Shown in pieces: positions 1,644 to 17,455 of a DNA stretch of 64,000 nt. The stretch comes from Escherichia coli. GTDB taxonomy: Bacteria > Pseudomonadota > Gammaproteobacteria > Enterobacterales > Enterobacteriaceae. Position numbers and translations under genes: made by a program. The stretch lies in assembly GCF_003334335.1 (NCBI RefSeq), contig NZ_QOWQ01000005.1. One strand, given 5' to 3'. Positions within the stretch are counted from its first letter, which is position 1. Each line of letters begins with the position of its first letter. The notes beneath the pieces are model-generated. The model did no database searches and was not told where the DNA came from. It was given only the letters and a program-made list of their open reading frames with translations.

Positions 1644-2300
1644 TTATTGGTTTACTGCATATACAACCAGAAATTGCAGCGGTGCAGTAATGATGTCCAG
1701 CGTAACAGTCACTGGCAGTAATGCTGCGGAAACACCATCCGGAATGCCTCTGGGTGAATAGTATTCATAAAATCGCACTTTAAATGGATGGTAGAACGCC
1801 ATCACCTTTGAGTAATCCATGTTTTTATTTTTCTCATGGATTGTGCCTTTTAGGTTTTCCAGTGACCTGGTACAGTGTTGAACACCACAGGCAAAACCAT
1901 AATGCGTTGCCAGTGCCTTTTCTTCTTCGTTATTCCAGTAGTAGTAAAGCGATATTGTGCCGGTAAATTTCTTTTTCCCCGCATTTAAAACAAATCTTGC
2001 GTCATCGGCAACCTGAATATTGTGCCGGTTAAGTGCTGGATCATTGAGCATCTTAACGATGTCATCGGCACCATCAGTGATAAGGTAATCCAGCGATTCC
2101 CCTACAAAAACATAGCCTTTTGTTCCATTACTATCTTTTGCCTGCGATAGCCCAGTGATGGTGTCTGACTGCGATTGATACTTTCCTGAACTACCCTTTG
2201 CGGTATGGGAAACCAGAGCATACGAGATACAGCCTGAAAGCATCAGCGCCAGTGGGAATAAACCGGCAGCCTTAAAAAATCCCTTAAAATTCAACTTCAT
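1644..2300 (-). CDS. yidX: Lipoprotein YidX
   Basis: ORF 1644..2417; start taken at internal Met MKLNFKG with signal peptide and lipobox LSGC (218 aa). Confidence 0.8.
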
Positions 2301-2437
2301 GATTAATCCTTTAAACGAGTAGCTAAGCCGTTGAAAGCATACTCTTCTTTCCCTCCTGTTTAGCGCCTGATATCCCTTTTCAGATTTCTGCCCGACGCAT
2401 GTCATTTTTTTATGCATTGTTCTTTTTGTGATCTAAA

Positions 2438-2513
2438 TTGTAGTACAACAATATAAGTTTGTACTACATTACACGCACGGCAAACGCGAACGTCATCACG
2501 CTGGTACTACAAA
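2438..2513. promoter_or_regulatory. Putative DgoR operator repeats in the dgo promoter region
   Basis: Three near-identical dyad elements ttgtagtacaa, ttgtactacat, tggtactacaaa upstream of dgoR. Confidence 0.55.
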
Positions 2514-2577
2514 GTTGCCGCGTTATGCATCGATCGGGGTAAAGTAGAGAAGAACATACAGAGCACAAGGACTCTCC

Positions 2578-3267
2578 ATGACTCTCAATAAAACCGATCG
2601 CATTGTCATTACGCTGGGTAAACAGATCGTTCACGGCAAATACGTGCCAGGCTCGCCGCTTCCGGCTGAGGCGGAACTCTGTGAGGAGTTTGCAACCTCG
2701 CGCAACATCATCCGTGAGGTGTTCCGTTCGCTGATGGCGAAGCGGCTGATTGAAATGAAACGTTATCGCGGGGCGTTTGTGGCACCGCGTAACCAGTGGA
2801 ATTACCTCGACACTGACGTACTGCAATGGGTGCTGGAAAATGACTACGACCCACGGCTTATCAGTGCCATGAGCGAAGTGCGAAATCTGGTGGAACCGGC
2901 GATTGCCCGTTGGGCAGCAGAGCGCGCGACTTCCAGCGATCTGGCGCAGATTGAATCGGCGCTGAACGAGATGATTGCCAACAATCAGGACCGCGAAGCG
3001 TTTAACGAAGCGGATATTCGCTACCACGAGGCGGTGCTGCAGTCGGTGCATAACCCGGTGTTACAGCAACTTAGCATTGCGATCAGTTCGCTGCAGCGGG
3101 CGGTTTTTGAACGAACCTGGATGGGCGATGAGGCCAACATGCCGCAAACGCTCCAGGAACATAAGGCGCTGTTCGATGCGATACGACATCAGGACGGCGA
3201 TGCGGCAGAGCAGGCGGCGCTTACCATGATCGCCAGCTCGACACGAAGGTTAAAGGAAATCACATGA
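2578..3267 (+). CDS. dgoR: GntR-family repressor of D-galactonate catabolism
   Basis: 229 aa with N-terminal wHTH and FCD-type domain; first gene of dgoRKADT. Confidence 0.9.
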   Translation: MTLNKTDRIVITLGKQIVHGKYVPGSPLPAEAELCEEFATSRNIIREVFRSLMAKRLIEMKRYRGAFVAPRNQWNYLDTDVLQWVLENDYDPRLISAMSEVRNLVEPAIARWAAERATSSDLAQIESALNEMIANNQDREAFNEADIRYHEAVLQSVHNPVLQQLSIAISSLQRAVFERTWMGDEANMPQTLQEHKALFDAIRHQDGDAAEQAALTMIASSTRRLKEIT

Positions 3268-4142
3268 CAGCTCGCTACATCGCAATTGACTGGGGATCGA
3301 CCAATCTGCGCGCCTGGCTTTATCAGGGCGACCACTGCCTGGAGAGCAGGCAATCAGAAGCAGGCGTCACGCGCCTGAACGGAAAATCTCCGGCTGCGGT
3401 GTTAGCAGAAGTCACGACCGACTGGCGTGAAGAGAAAACGCCAGTGGTAATGGCAGGAATGGTTGGCAGCAACGTCGGCTGGAAAGTTGCACCGTATTTA
3501 TCTGTTCCTGCCTGTTTTTCGTCTATTGGCGAACAATTAACGTCAGTTGGCGACAATATCTGGATTATTCCCGGATTATGTGTCTCTCATGACGATAACC
3601 ACAATGTGATGCGCGGCGAAGAAACACAATTGATCGGCGCGCGAGCTCTGGCTCCTTCCTCTCTTTATGTCATGCCCGGAACCCATTGCAAATGGGTGCA
3701 GGCCGATAGCCAGCAAATCAACGATTTTCGCACCGTGATGACCGGTGAATTACATCATTTACTGTTAAATCACTCATTGATTGGCGCAGGTTTGCCGCCG
3801 CAGGAAAACTCTGCCGATGCCTTCACAGCTGGCCTTGAGCGTGGTCTTAATACGCCCGCCATATTGCCGCAGCTTTTTGAAGTTCGCGCCTCGCATGTGC
3901 TGGGAACACTTCCCCGCGAACAGGTCAGCGAATTTCTCTCTGGTTTGTTGATTGGCGCAGAGGTCGCCAGTATGCGCGACTATGTGGCCCATCAACACGC
4001 CATCACCCTTGTCGCCGGAACATCGCTGACCGCGCGCTACCAGCAAGCCTTTCAGGCGATGGGTTGCGACGTGACGGCGGTGGCGGGCGACACGGCATTT
4101 CAGGCTGGTATAAGGAGCATCGCTCATGCAGTGGCAAACTAA
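3264..4142 (+). CDS. dgoK: 2-dehydro-3-deoxygalactonokinase
   Basis: 292 aa, start overlaps dgoR stop (ATGA); operon context. Confidence 0.9.
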   Translation: MTARYIAIDWGSTNLRAWLYQGDHCLESRQSEAGVTRLNGKSPAAVLAEVTTDWREEKTPVVMAGMVGSNVGWKVAPYLSVPACFSSIGEQLTSVGDNIWIIPGLCVSHDDNHNVMRGEETQLIGARALAPSSLYVMPGTHCKWVQADSQQINDFRTVMTGELHHLLLNHSLIGAGLPPQENSADAFTAGLERGLNTPAILPQLFEVRASHVLGTLPREQVSEFLSGLLIGAEVASMRDYVAHQHAITLVAGTSLTARYQQAFQAMGCDVTAVAGDTAFQAGIRSIAHAVAN

Positions 4143-11312: not shown

Positions 11313-11464
11313 GTCTTACTTACTCAACAATGCGTTAAATTTCGACTGTTTAAGATATTTCGGCACGTTCTTTCCCGTGATAATGTGCGCTATAAGGCAA
11401 ATCTGCTTCACCGATTCAGCCATAATCCGTAGCAATTAAAATGTTATCTCAAGAGAAATGGACG

Positions 11465-13126
11465 ATGAGTGATATAGCATTAACGGTCAGTATTCTGGCT
11501 TTGGTGGCAGTCGTCGGTTTGTTTATCGGCAACGTCAAATTTCGCGGCATAGGATTAGGTATTGGCGGCGTGCTGTTTGGTGGGATCATCGTCGGCCATT
11601 TTGTTTCTCAGGCGGGGATGACATTAAGTAGCGATATGCTGCATGTTATTCAGGAATTTGGCCTGATCCTGTTCGTTTATACTATCGGGATTCAGGTAGG
11701 GCCGGGCTTCTTTGCCTCATTGCGCGTCTCCGGATTACGCCTCAACCTGTTTGCTGTTCTGATCGTCATCATCGGTGGTCTGGTTACCGCCATCCTGCAT
11801 AAACTGTTTGATATTCCACTGCCGGTAGTGCTGGGGATTTTCTCCGGTGCGGTTACCAATACGCCAGCGCTGGGGGCAGGGCAGCAGATTTTGCGCGACC
11901 TGGGTACACCAATGGAAATGGTCGATCAGATGGGGATGAGTTACGCGATGGCGTATCCATTCGGCATTTGCGGGATTTTGTTCACCATGTGGATGTTGCG
12001 GGTTATTTTCCGCGTCAATGTCGAGACAGAAGCTCAGCAGCACGAGTCTTCACGCACCAATGGCGGCGCGCTGATCAAGACTATCAATATTCGCGTTGAG
12101 AACCCTAACCTGCATGATTTAGCCATTAAAGATGTACCGATTCTCAACGGCGACAAAATTATCTGCTCGCGTCTGAAACGCGAAGAAACCCTAAAAGTTC
12201 CTTCGCCAGATACCATTATCCAACTGGGCGATTTGCTGCATCTGGTGGGTCAGCCAGCGGATTTACATAATGCGCAACTGGTGATTGGTCAGGAGGTCGA
12301 TACTTCGCTGTCCACGAAAGGCACTGATTTGCGCGTCGAGCGTGTGGTGGTCACCAATGAAAACGTGCTCGGAAAACGTATTCGCGACCTGCACTTTAAA
12401 GAACGCTATGACGTTGTTATCTCGCGCCTGAACCGTGCCGGGGTCGAACTGGTCGCCAGTGGCGATATCAGCCTGCAGTTCGGCGATATCCTCAATCTGG
12501 TGGGGCGTCCGTCCGCAATTGATGCCGTTGCCAATGTGCTGGGGAATGCGCAGCAAAAACTGCAACAGGTTCAGATGCTGCCAGTGTTTATTGGCATCGG
12601 GCTAGGCGTATTGTTAGGTTCTATTCCCGTCTTTGTGCCAGGATTCCCGGCCGCGTTGAAACTGGGGCTGGCGGGCGGACCGCTGATTATGGCGTTGATC
12701 CTCGGGCGTATCGGCAGTATCGGCAAGCTGTACTGGTTTATGCCGCCAAGCGCCAACCTCGCGCTGCGGGAGCTGGGGATCGTGCTGTTCCTCTCGGTCG
12801 TTGGTCTGAAATCTGGTGGGGATTTTGTGAATACCCTGGTCAATGGCGAAGGGCTAAGCTGGATTGGTTATGGTGCCCTGATCACCGCCGTTCCGCTGAT
12901 TACTGTTGGCATTCTGGCGCGGATGTTAGCCAAAATGAATTACCTGACCATGTGCGGGATGCTGGCAGGTTCCATGACCGATCCTCCGGCGCTGGCGTTT
13001 GCTAATAATCTTCATCCAACCAGCGGTGCGGCGGCGCTCTCTTACGCCACTGTCTATCCGTTGGTAATGTTCCTGCGCATTATCACCCCCCAATTACTGG
13101 CGGTGCTCTTCTGGAGTATCGGTTAA
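11465..13126 (+). CDS. yidE: AAE-family transporter YidE
   Basis: 553 aa from [11 protein letters not shown]; two membrane domains flanking a central soluble region. Confidence 0.9.
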
Positions 13127-13839
13127 CTCTTTTCCGGGTGGAGTCGCCGTAAATGGTACTCCACCTGGTATTCGCTGGCATTTCTGAACATCACTGAATA
13201 ATTCAAAAACTCCCCGCTCTCGCTATATGACAACGAGGTGATCCGCAGCAGTGGCGTGTGTTCCGCTACCTTCATTTGCCGCGCCAGCAGTCTATCGGCG
13301 AGCACTGGCGTCAGGCTTTCATAATTACCGCCAATCAAAATCCCGCACTCTTGTTCAATATATTCAAACTTCGACCCTTCCAGATGTTGCAGCGAAAGAT
13401 TACGGAACAGTTTTACCGGCATATAGCTGTCTTCCAGCATCAGCGGTTTCCCTTCCACAAAACGAACGCGACGGGAGAAGTAGATCTGCTCGTTGATTTG
13501 AATCCGTAACTGGCTGGCAATGGCCGGAGGCGCAGGCATGATTTCAAAAATCAGCACCTGGCTGGTGACCGTTTTTCCCTGCCGTTTTAACACCTCCACC
13601 AGCCCGGTCAGACTGGCGGTTTGATGCAGTACATCTTTGCGCACCAGGTAAGTGCCACTACCGTGGCGGCGGACCACCAGCCCCCACGCTACCAGCAGGT
13701 CAATGGCTTTACGGATGGTCATCCGCGATACCGCAAACTCTTCCGCCAGCTTTTTTTCACCGGGAAGAAGGCTGTTTAGCGTGAAATCTGCGGAGTTAAG
13801 TCGAATTCTTAACCGCTCCGCAATGCTTTTGTAGATCAT
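13123..13839 (-). CDS. yidP: GntR/HutC-family transcriptional regulator YidP
   Basis: Start at [14 protein letters not shown] (238 aa); N-terminal wHTH and UTRA-like C-terminal domain. Confidence 0.85.
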
Positions 13840-14134
13840 CTCTAGATCTCTTTTTTGCCTGCAAGCCCGGGTAATGCGCACACAAGTTCTGCTTAATCGA
13901 TTGAAAAAACATCTTTTTTTTAAAGATGTGTTCGATGCTGTGTACCTGTGCTCACAGAGGTCTACTTTTTCGCGAAAACGTAGATCTCTACCGCCCAACG
14001 AAAAGCATGAAAGCGATCACGAATCCCATTGGGTCGTCATGTTCTGCCGATCGCATCTTCCTATCCTCGCTCCAGGCCTGCCGCATAACCAATCAGGCTT
14101 CCTACTTACAGAATTGAGAAAAGAGGATGTGGAA

Positions 14135-17455
<3,321 letters not shown>

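Follow-up and report, generated by a model that had tools for sequence, protein, structure and literature searches.

A conserved set of TAGAC boxes between yidP and glvC of Escherichia coli as a candidate non-canonical operator of the regulator YidP

The region described here separates the divergently oriented genes yidP and glvC in a 64-kb stretch of Escherichia coli DNA, which was analysed as a whole and is referred to as the window. The genes and features at this locus are as follows.

13123 to 13839, minus strand: yidP, encoding a GntR/HutC-type regulator of 238 aa (open reading frame, RefSeq annotation)
13828 to 13839: box A1, TTTGTAGATCAT, with the core TAGAT at 13832-13836, in codons 2-3 of yidP
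13840 to 13851: box A2, CTCTAGATCTCT, with the core TAGAT at 13843-13847, on the yidP ribosome-binding site
13906 to 13932: AT-rich inverted repeat, stem ACATCTTT/AAAGATGT with the loop TTTTT, judged to lie outside the control system
13956 to 13989: palindrome B, AGAGGTCTACTTTTTCG followed by CGAAAACGTAGATCTCT, centre at 13972/13973, flanked on the inside by a T-tract and an A-tract
13960 to 13965: box BL, GTCTAC, inverted, within palindrome B
13980 to 13985: box BR, GTAGAT, within palindrome B
14006 to 14021, plus strand: CRP-like site, CATGAAAGCGATCACG, centre at 14013/14014, 41 bp to the right of the centre of palindrome B
14039 to 14067, plus strand: putative glvC promoter, with a -35-like ATGTTC at 14039-14044, a 17-bp spacer and a -10-like TATCCT at 14062-14067
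14074 to 14100, plus strand: short stem AGGCCTG ... CAGGCTT in the inferred glvC leader
14135 to 15751, plus strand: glvC, encoding an alpha-glucoside-specific PTS IICB transporter of 538 aa (NCBIfam, RefSeq)

YidP comprises a GntR domain (Pfam PF00392, residues 3-64, E = 7e-21) and a UTRA domain (PF07702, residues 87-224, E = 2e-30), which agrees with its earlier recognition as a GntR/HutC-type regulator from the letters of the DNA. Orthologs of this protein are labelled by JGI as 'GntR family glv operon transcriptional regulator'. GlvC matches the NCBIfam model TIGR02005 with 955 bits against a cutoff of 607, and glvC, with a glvG remnant downstream, is the presumed regulated operon. The divergent order of glvG-glvC and yidP is kept in about 65 loci. 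The operon has decayed in K-12-like E. coli strains, in which glvG is frameshifted. To our knowledge, YidP still belongs to those E. coli transcription factors that lack an assigned function. No published characterisation of YidP was found, nor were YidP binding sites found in the literature mentioning yidP, in a GntR motif compendium with its supplements or in a ChIP-exo candidate list. A literature search for aglA/aglB in combination with a GntR regulator gave no result either.

The sequence-only reading of this DNA had drawn attention to several strings between the two genes. All of them are found at the positions it gave, namely GTAGATCATCTCTAGATCTC at 13831-13850, TAGATCTCTA on the glvC side at 13981-13990 and the dyad GTCTACTTTTT / CGCG / AAAACGTAGATC at 13960-13986. 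The overlap of GTAGATCATCTCTAGATCTC with the yidP start codon also holds, since this codon, CAT on the plus strand at 13837-13839, falls inside the segment. The imperfect dyad is present, but its size had been understated, and its real extent is a palindrome of 34 bp (13956-13989). The arms of this palindrome (13956-13972 and 13973-13989) have 17 nt each, are complementary at 15 of 17 positions and adjoin without a spacer. Within the left arm lies a third, inverted copy of the repeated 9-mer (TAGACCTCT, minus strand, 13956-13964). The box A1 element spans codons 1-4 of yidP (ATG ATC TAC AAA on the minus strand), and box A2 follows at 11 bp in the same orientation. The tail of A2 (13847-13851) represents, on the complementary strand, the Shine-Dalgarno sequence of yidP, which reads AGAGA here and AGAGG in other genera.

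Both exact copies of TAGATCTCT in the 64-kb window lie inside one 150-bp stretch at yidP/glvC, and the same 150 bp contain three of the six matches in the window that have at most one mismatch. A spacer-less palindrome with at least 15 of 17 complementary positions is expected 0.005 times per 64 kb, and the occurrence of three GTAGAY hexamers within 156 bp has a Poisson P of about 4e-5. The predicted fold of palindrome B was better than that of all 200 shuffles (z = -3.5).

A motif search in orthologous intergenic regions had been named beforehand as a check that could refute the proposal of operator half-sites. This search was carried out on 67 non-redundant orthologous yidP/glvC intergenic regions from Enterobacteriaceae and Proteus, which cover more than 20 genera, and the boxes proved to be conserved. 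Four boxes with the core TAGAC (A1, A2, BL and BR) stand out as conserved islands, with 1.6-1.8 bits per position in the cores compared to 0.8 for the whole intergenic region. Conservation in the box cores is 81-100 %, while the rest of the intergenic region is poorly conserved. In A1, TAGATCA is invariant in the 67 loci. For A2, the majority sequence is CAGTAGACCTCT, with core positions conserved to 88-99 % and a mean of 1.62 bits, and the core positions of palindrome B are conserved to 81-100 %.

The registers of the boxes are conserved as well. A1 and A2 keep their distance of 11 bp and their common orientation without an indel in 67 loci, and BL and BR are 21 bp apart in 68 of 68 sequences, with 16 nt between the inverted half-sites. 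The distance from BR to the centre of the CRP-like site is 30 bp in 66 of 68 sequences. Of 69 loci, 59 have the pattern GTCTA-N16-TAGAC upstream of yidP with at most one mismatch, and the 421 kb of these loci contain no further match. The 21-bp register is also kept beside glvC/GH4 genes in homologs with 44-65 % identity. Taken together, the boxes exceed chance expectation, show purifying selection, occur in fixed registers and accompany yidP. The distance from A to B is variable, ranging from 44 to 122 bp, and clusters at 44/45, 97-99 and 117-122 bp. This corresponds to fractional turns of about 0.1-0.3, and 0.6 in Proteus; as a sign of looping, such helical phasing is suggestive only.

Judged from the alignment, conservation concerns the unit (G/A)TAGA(C/T) and not the 9-mer to the letter. 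In A2 and BR, the GATC and the AGATCT palindromes formed around it are specific to Escherichia, with a few other lineages in the case of A2. Since other genera carry GACC at these positions, the AGATCT/GATC palindromes were rejected as the functional unit. For A1, the codon usage of yidP suggests a constraint beyond the coding requirement. The Ile2 codon is ATC and the Lys4 codon is AAA in 69 of 69 loci, while the codons for Ile6, Ile42 and the other lysines vary, and it is the invariant wobble base of Ile2 that points to this constraint. The wobble base of Tyr3 varies, as does the corresponding position of the other boxes. In two loci (L055 and L083), BR is degenerate despite an unchanged recognition helix. 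Polymorphism among E. coli strains was uninformative because their divergence is too small (at least 98 % identity); one strain carries a G>T change at 13959 that recreates the majority sequence ATGTCTA.

On the glvC side, the CRP-like site has a mean of 1.61 bits, and its ATGA and GATCAC parts are almost invariant. As a sequence match it is at chance level, since CATGA-N6-TCACG has three mismatches to TGTGA-N6-TCACA and the window contains 200 such matches compared to 212 expected. The positions that match the CRP consensus are the conserved ones, and the label 'CRP-like' was kept because of this conservation and the position of the site. The -10-like hexamer (1.64 bits; TATTCT in most genera) starts about 49 bp from the centre of the CRP-like site in every locus. 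With this fixed spacing, the CRP-like site would be centred at about -60.5/-61.5 and palindrome B would lie around -101, counted from the inferred start, which is predicted at about 14074. A conserved ATGA-N6-TCAC ahead of TATNCT at this distance would resemble class I CRP promoters of the lac type (-61.5), and the element is tentatively assigned to CRP. Published transcription starts and CRP binding data were looked for without result. A scan with the sigma-70 consensus gave no match at the glvC promoter proposed here and none for yidP, and for this reason the glvC promoter is called putative. Weak candidates for a yidP promoter that were picked by hand, CATTAC around 13871-13876 on the minus strand and TTGTCT-17-TAGACA across the palindrome, are not claimed.

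The nearest solved structure for YidP is that of NagR (YvoA), its best PDB match, and both proteins have the same architecture of a GntR wHTH and a UTRA domain. Their DNA-binding domains align without gaps. Arg48 and Gly69 of NagR are kept as R39 and G60 and NagR Arg38 is replaced by K29, so that YidP retains two of the three base-contacting residues. The best NCBIfam match of YidP is PRK09764, which we take to be the MngR/FarR model, and TreR (TIGR02404) is detectable as a homolog with E = 1.6e-24. In the dre operators of NagR and DasR, the half-sites adjoin each other around the core GT-N4-AC (GTGGTCTAGACCAC), and a single juxtaposed dimer occupies both (PDB 4WWC, 4U0Y; PMC4333415). The NagR/DasR half-site GTGGTCTA is nearly identical to the boxes described here, for example A1 (GTGATCTA) and BL (GAGGTCTA), and in native dre sites and YidP boxes alike the G at -4 is well kept while -5 is either G or T. 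The inner TCTAC, which is contacted only through the backbone in NagR, is the best-conserved part of the YidP boxes. Control of a PTS sugar operon and, probably, a response to a sugar phosphate are further features of NagR that YidP would share. In contrast to the dre operators, the half-sites at the yidP locus are inverted at a distance of 21 bp and are accompanied by a direct-repeat pair 11 bp apart.

In the canonical core of GntR/HutC operators, GT-M-TA-K-AC, GT and AC are 4 nt apart (PMC4494728). In the YidP boxes, GTAGAC/GTCTAC, they are 2 nt apart, and the boxes do not form a single palindrome of abutting half-sites. The location in the shared promoter region of regulator and target, conserved alongside both genes, is common to the YidP boxes and the canonical operators. 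Upstream of distant YidP homologs, a canonical TGGTCTAAACCA is found. Among the GntR regulators, FarR/MngR, NagQ, SdhR and NanR are documented to use repeat operators that depart from the canonical form. FarR recognises direct repeats of TGTATTAWTT, NagQ recognises repeats of TGGTATT, and (GGTATA)3 is bound cooperatively by three NanR dimers. Like the operators of FarR/MngR, NagQ and NanR, the A1-A2 pair consists of at least two boxes in the same orientation about one turn apart. However, the box K-R-TCTAC is only loosely similar to TGTATTAWTT, TGGTATT and GGTATA, and the yidP locus has a further, inverted pair whose boxes are two turns apart. NanR, a member of the FadR subfamily, depends on an extension at its N-terminus, whereas YidP begins 2 residues ahead of the wHTH domain and has no such extension. 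GlvR (YfiA), the regulator of the B. subtilis glv operon, belongs to the RpiR family, and the operators of TreR are canonical GT-N4-AC palindromes. The loci of TreR in B. subtilis and other HutC repressors of alpha-glucoside or trehalose PTS operons, of GlvR and of yidP have in common that a local regulator lies beside genes for a PTS IICB component and a phospho-alpha-glucosidase. GlvR is described as a positive regulator in a title cited in PMC5309279.

Since the boxes are real and conserved across more than 20 genera, the repeated TAGATCTCT motifs are most likely binding sites of YidP, and the region is probably a composite, non-canonical YidP operator that represses both yidP and glvC. The initial suggestion of operator half-sites, possibly those of YidP, has gained support from the conserved TAGAC boxes, the 21-bp register, the likeness of the half-sites to those of NagR/DasR and the presence of GntR and UTRA domains in the neighbouring regulator. 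We infer YidP as the binder and repression as its effect, and likewise the stoichiometry, the identity of the effector and the assignment of promoter and CRP elements.

In the proposed mechanism, the operator would consist of four copies of a box of 7-8 bp, (G/A)TAGA(C/T) on the plus strand and K-R-TCTAC on the other, each resembling one half-site of the dre operator. BL and BR, inverted and separated by two helical turns, form the 34-bp palindrome together with the T-tract and the A-tract, at a fixed distance upstream of the CRP-like site and the -10-like hexamer of the glvC promoter. The direct repeats A1 and A2, one turn apart, cover the ribosome-binding site and the first three codons of yidP. 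If the inducer is absent, both pairs would be occupied by YidP dimers or by a dimer of dimers. Occupancy of pair A would block the expression of yidP (autoregulation), and palindrome B, alone or looped to pair A, would keep CRP from activating glvC. Transport by GlvC would yield a phosphorylated alpha-glucoside, which could bind the UTRA domain and release YidP, comparable to trehalose-6-P for TreR and GlcNAc-6-P for NagR.

Several points speak against this model. The boxes do not fit the canonical HutC consensus GT-N4-AC, and a juxtaposed dimer of the NagR type cannot reach across half-sites that are 21 bp apart. Part of the conservation is of other origin, as A1 lies in coding sequence and the CTCT tail of A2 corresponds to the Shine-Dalgarno sequence of yidP. 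In addition, it would be unusual for a simple repressor to act at a palindrome some 100 bp ahead of the inferred start and farther upstream than the CRP-like site. The failure to locate a yidP promoter, the degenerate BR of L055 and L083 and the decay of the operon in K-12-like strains also count against the model.

It is conceivable, though doubtful, that YidP uses a geometry undescribed for HutC regulators, with one dre-like half-site per domain, looped pairs and tuning by Dam in some lineages. The inverted pair two turns apart and the direct pair one turn apart would then be bound by a splayed dimer or a tetramer, looping out the intervening 44-122 bp. Three of the four boxes contain GATC in Escherichia (A1, A2 and BR) and in Proteus (A1, BL and BR). 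Lineage-specific Dam tuning of repression could occur because the adenine methylated in GATC coincides with the A that is invariant in the box.

Binding of a genuine conserved operator by another factor, such as a HutC/GntR paralog or a global sugar regulator, is considered unlikely. The link between the boxes and YidP is indirect, and TAGACC/GGTCTA is a generic HutC half-site that also occurs in NagR/DasR operators and upstream of homologs with 32 % identity. Furthermore, the centre of the E. coli palindrome, consisting of T-tract, CGCG and A-tract, may loosely recall NagC/Mlc-type sites. However, the central CGCG is restricted to E. coli and is not conserved beyond it. The boxes are located solely beside yidP in 69 of 69 loci and follow its homologs down to 44 % identity, and the position of one pair over the ribosome-binding site and start codon of yidP is the classic one for autoregulation. 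A YidP paralog with 54 % identity and an altered recognition helix (ARTTMRKA) also has changed B boxes, GTATAC/TATAC; this covariation of helix and box is based on a single paralog.

A further explanation, which is improbable, does without a dedicated operator. The conservation would result from overlapping constraints of codons, Shine-Dalgarno sequence and promoter, and the palindrome would be a DNA or RNA structure, either a cruciform or a transcript hairpin. The coding nature of A1, the Shine-Dalgarno sequence in the A2 tail and the better folding of the single-stranded palindrome compared to shuffled controls would fit this explanation, as would the weak resemblance of the arms, on either strand, to a -35 (TTGTCT) and a -10 (TAGACA) element 17 bp apart. 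Nevertheless, the TAGAC core also occurs in the non-palindromic copies A1 and A2, the wobble base of Ile2 is invariant beyond the coding need, and the T that a -10 hexamer needs at its last position is missing from TAGACA. The arms of palindrome B are conserved in sequence and not through compensatory changes, and the loop length is fixed. No terminator-like site (GC-rich stem with a T-run) was found in the region, and Rfam gave no match at E <= 1.

Even less credible is a role of the motif as a cluster of GATC sites for Dam methylation or SeqA binding, forming an epigenetic or replication-linked element instead of repressor boxes. Five GATC sites lie within 216 bp (13834, 13845, 13983, 14015 and 14049) compared to 0.87 expected (P = 0.002), three of these five are located in boxes, and the GATC of A1 is invariant in all orthologs. 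However, A2 and BR mostly have GACC outside Escherichia and BL has GACC even in E. coli, so that the conserved unit is TAGAC/TAGAT and not GATC. The GATC in the CRP-like site belongs to the conserved GATCAC. Whereas Dam switches of the pap/agn43 type have conserved GATC in their binding sites, A1 is the only box with a conserved GATC. Finally, although the six 9-mer matches with at most one mismatch across the window are close to the 5.5 found in shuffles and the hairpin at 13909-13929 is only marginally better than shuffles, a chance origin of the repeats in an AT-rich intergenic region has a negligible probability and is excluded for the boxes by their clustering, the 15/17 palindrome and, above all, the cross-genus conservation with fixed registers.

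The proposed YidP operator consists of four boxes with exact coordinates and is testable. Its likely target would be the alpha-glucoside PTS operon glvC-glvG (aglA/aglB in Klebsiella), with a probable co-input by CRP. The assignment would fill one gap in a regulon database, and the map of the native control region could serve synthetic-biology users of the glvC locus. Split dre-like half-sites at a two-turn distance would slightly widen the known range of architectures among HutC operators. Overall, this is sound but ordinary gene-control DNA that leaves the understanding of the regulator class unchanged.

A few other elements of the region were set aside. The short hairpin pointed out in the sequence-only reading has its stems at 13909-13916 and 13922-13929, but its loop has 5 nt and not 6. 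The segment around it, about 75 bp long, is missing in 26 loci and unalignable elsewhere, with a mean of 0.28 bits per position, and E. albertii has no copy of the hairpin. Its fold (z = -2.7) is equalled by 4 of 200 shuffles and is weaker than that of the palindrome. The hairpin was rejected as a regulatory element and is best explained by chance. Open frames that bridge the intergenic region in frame (13874-15751 on the plus strand and 13123-13998 on the minus strand) were rejected as well, as the intergenic region lacks codon-like conservation and differs among loci by indels of 43, 54 and about 75 bp. The stem in the inferred glvC leader is weak, with four pairs and -3.5 kcal/mol, and Klebsiella has an insertion in its loop. 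Its GGCC/GGCC pairing is predicted on the alignment, and two of the pairs are kept through two-sided changes.

The control region lies in the E. coli chromosome between two divergent genes, and its sequence does not differ from that in RP437, a K-12 derivative. The genes around it are as follows.

11441-13126, + strand: yidE
13123-13839, - strand: yidP, encoding a GntR winged-helix domain and a UTRA domain
295 bp: yidP/glvC intergenic region
14135-15751, + strand: glvC, alpha-glucoside PTS IICB gene
15751-16565, after glvC: glvG remnant, frameshifted and truncated as in K-12
After the glvG remnant in gene order: yidL

The genes yidE and yidP are convergent, and their 3' ends overlap by 4 bp (13123-13126). 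The two domains identify YidP as a regulator of the HutC subfamily. Its nearest solved relative is NagR/YvoA, and its best NCBIfam match is PRK09764, probably the MngR/FarR model.

All strings quoted in the sequence-only reading are present at their positions, except that the hairpin loop has five T instead of six. The dyad it described is also present but larger, with arms at 13956-13972 and 13973-13989 that are complementary at 15 of 17 positions and have no spacer. The repeated 9-mer has a third copy, TAGACCTCT, which is inverted and forms the left arm. Two exact copies of the 9-mer exist in the 64 kb, and both fall within the control region. A palindrome of such quality is expected 0.005 times per window, and three GTAGAY hexamers fall within 156 bp (P ~4e-5). 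Compared with 200 shuffles, the palindrome folded better than all of them and the hairpin only marginally better. The motif cluster is not a chance feature.

A single YidP protein scan of representative genomes yielded 77 loci. The gene order glvG-glvC / yidP, mostly followed by yidE, is kept in about 65 of them, from Escherichia, Citrobacter, Klebsiella, Raoultella, Kosakonia, Kluyvera, Lelliottia, Cedecea, Buttiauxella, Mangrovibacter, Superficieibacter, Chimaeribacter, Proteus and other genera. An alignment of 67 non-redundant yidP/glvC intergenic regions is poorly conserved overall, at 0.8 bits per position, but contains sharp islands.

Conserved islands in the alignment of 67 intergenic regions
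A1 (13828-13839): TTTGTAGATCAy, spanning yidP codons 1-4
A2 (13840-13851): nGTAGACCTCT, directly upstream of A1; its CCTCT is complementary to AGAGG, the Shine-Dalgarno sequence of yidP
Palindrome B (13956-13989), with the inverted boxes BL and BR: majority cATGTCTAwtTTT-N6-AAAAGTAGACAAC
AAAACCATGAAAGCGATCACGAAT
CCTATTCTC
glvC Shine-Dalgarno sequence

The four boxes share a TAGAC core (T 91-100%, A 81-100%, G 94-100%, A 99-100%, C 88-93%), with T instead of C at the last position in A1. In Proteus (L063-L066), box A2 is degenerate (TATAC), and the palindrome arms GTGATCTrC/GTAGATCAC are identical to box A1. These arms also equal a CRP half-site (TGTGATCT/AGATCACA) but are 21 bp apart, unlike CRP spacing.

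Spacing within each pair is rigid: A1 and A2 are 11 bp apart without any indel, and BL and BR are 21 bp apart in 68 of 68 sequences. The A2-BL distance varies in classes of 44/45, 97-99 and 117-122 bp, and the A-B distances are approximately, though not convincingly, in phase. Allowing one mismatch, the pattern GTCTA-N16-TAGAC lies no more than 400 bp upstream of yidP in 59 of 69 loci, and no other match is present in 421 kb from these loci. In three distant YidP homologs from metagenomic and genomic contigs (65%, 52% and 44% identical), A1, A2 and the 21-bp register are all preserved, and two of the homologs adjoin genes for a PTS IICB and a GH4 phospho-glucosidase. The AT-rich hairpin (13909-13929), which had been counted as part of the control region, sits in the variable A2-BL segment, is conserved at 0.28 bits per position and is lacking in E. 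albertii. It is regarded as having arisen by chance in E. coli.

Among the 44 conserved residues in the first 80 yidP codons, only Ile2 (ATC) and Lys4 (AAA) have an invariant codon (69/69 each). Both codons (13828-13836, yidP codons 2-4) are kept even in AT-rich Proteus, while the other conserved residues each use several synonymous codons; ATT, ATC and ATA are all used freely at Ile6 and Ile42. The wobble base of Ile2 coincides with the invariant G in the core of the box, whereas that of Tyr3 is variable, as is the matching position of the three remaining boxes. Selection on A1 therefore acts on the DNA itself and not through its codons alone. The yidP start codon is GTG in most genera and ATG in E. 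coli.

The earlier proposal that the motifs may be operator half-sites, possibly for the GntR/HutC-type YidP, gains support from their conservation, their co-localisation with yidP and their likeness to the NagR half-site. The case for YidP as the binder is circumstantial. The boxes accompany yidP and one pair covers its translation start, an arrangement typical of autoregulated local repressors. On the opposite strand, the boxes (GTGATCTA in A1; GAGGTCTA and GTTGTCTA in B) almost match the NagR half-site GTGGTCTA, which each NagR DNA-binding domain reads via Arg38 (G-5), Arg48 (G-4) and the wing residue Gly69 (G-7) (PMC4333415). The DNA-binding domains of YidP and NagR align without gaps; Arg39 and Gly60 of YidP correspond to Arg48 and Gly69, and Lys29 replaces Arg38. 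The boxes show the pattern reported for native dre sites, the operators of NagR and DasR, in which G is mostly retained at -4 and G or T occurs at -5. Citrobacter sp. 18056 (1997-3708 of its locus) carries two tandem yidP genes, a 54%-identical paralog adjoining a glvC-like gene, followed by a 79%-identical ortholog. The paralog has the recognition helix ARTTMRKA instead of (A/S)RMTIRKA, and its B boxes are GTATAC/TATAC, a single case of co-variation. Homologs with 32% identity have the canonical TGGTCTAAACCA upstream.

A different transcription factor might bind the boxes, but their co-localisation with yidP down to 44% identity speaks against it. GATC is enriched, with 5 sites in 216 bp (P = 0.002), largely as a by-product. 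It is conserved only in A1, and A2 and BR read GACC elsewhere. A lineage-specific Dam effect on binding may exist. A purely structural or promoter explanation would leave unexplained why non-palindromic copies exist and why the wobble base of Ile2 is constrained.

The HutC consensus is a single palindrome whose half-sites abut, four bases separating GT from AC (PMC4494728), and on it the two NagR domains are juxtaposed (PMC4333415). At yidP/glvC, in contrast, two helical turns lie between the inverted half-sites, and the boxes of the second pair form a direct repeat spaced by one turn. A NagR-like dimer therefore cannot touch both boxes of a pair alike. Documented exceptions to the canon are FarR/MngR and NagQ, which bind direct repeats, SdhR, which binds a compound palindrome, and NanR, with three GGTATA repeats and three cooperating dimers. 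In several HutC groups, additional half-sites lie 7-12 bp away from the main one. YidP might bind as a splayed dimer, as two dimers or as a tetramer with a loop. Overall, the boxes are supported as an operator whose split architecture is mildly unusual and whose HutC regulator is uncharacterised.

Two further elements lie on the glvC side.

14006-14021: CRP-like element CATGAAAGCGATCACG, conserved as ATGA-N6-TCAC
14062-14067: -10-like hexamer, TATCCT here and TATTCT in most genera (C for T in E. coli)

The mutual distances of these elements and the palindrome are invariant in 67 loci. The centre of B is 41 bp and BR 30 bp from the CRP-like centre, which is 49 bp from the -10-like hexamer; ATGA-N6-TCAC starts 48.5 bp before the conserved TATNCT. 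Since the CRP match by sequence alone is at chance level and a consensus scan found no promoter, both assignments are inferred from conservation and spacing. The putative CRP site would lie near -61 and B near -101 in a class I geometry, implying a CRP-dependent class I glvC promoter with a predicted start near 14074. Directly left of the palindrome, TGTACCTGTGCTCACA (13941-13956) has two mismatches to the CRP consensus, and its conservation does not extend to other genera. A short stem at the start of the putative glvC leader (14074-14100) reads AGGCCTG...CAGGCTT in E. coli and GGCC...GGCC elsewhere. Its pairing survives two-sided changes in Pseudocitrobacter (GGCT/AGCC) and Entomohabitans (GACC/GGTC) (stem loci L012, L044, L021/L025/L026/L037), and in the Klebsiella oxytoca group the loop carries an insertion of 43 nt.

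The position of B is fixed relative to the glvC side and that of pair A relative to the yidP start, which fits a situation described for two-site GntR divergons, where each site serves its own operon (PMC4494728). The pairs may also cooperate via looping. YidP would repress both transcription units, and a phosphorylated alpha-glucoside would relieve this repression; the negative sign and the effector are proposed by analogy with NagR and TreR.

The control region matched no Rfam family and no terminator. YidP is listed as uncharacterised in a genomic SELEX overview, does not appear in the GntR motif compendium or its supplements, and is not among 40 ChIP-exo candidates; no description of a YidP binding motif or experiment was found in the literature. 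The pairing of regulator and target is an existing inference by context, since JGI already names orthologs 'GntR family glv operon transcriptional regulator'.

The yidP-glvC intergenic region has no match in 1147 of 5426 complete E. coli genomes, while the yidE end is kept in 5417, so the yidP-glv module is accessory within the species. In E. coli S51 (NZ_CP015995.1), glvG is intact and encodes a 441-aa 6-phospho-alpha-glucosidase, yidP is frameshifted, and an IS4-like element sits between pair A and palindrome B. The insertion and the frameshift may represent a natural derepression of the operon.
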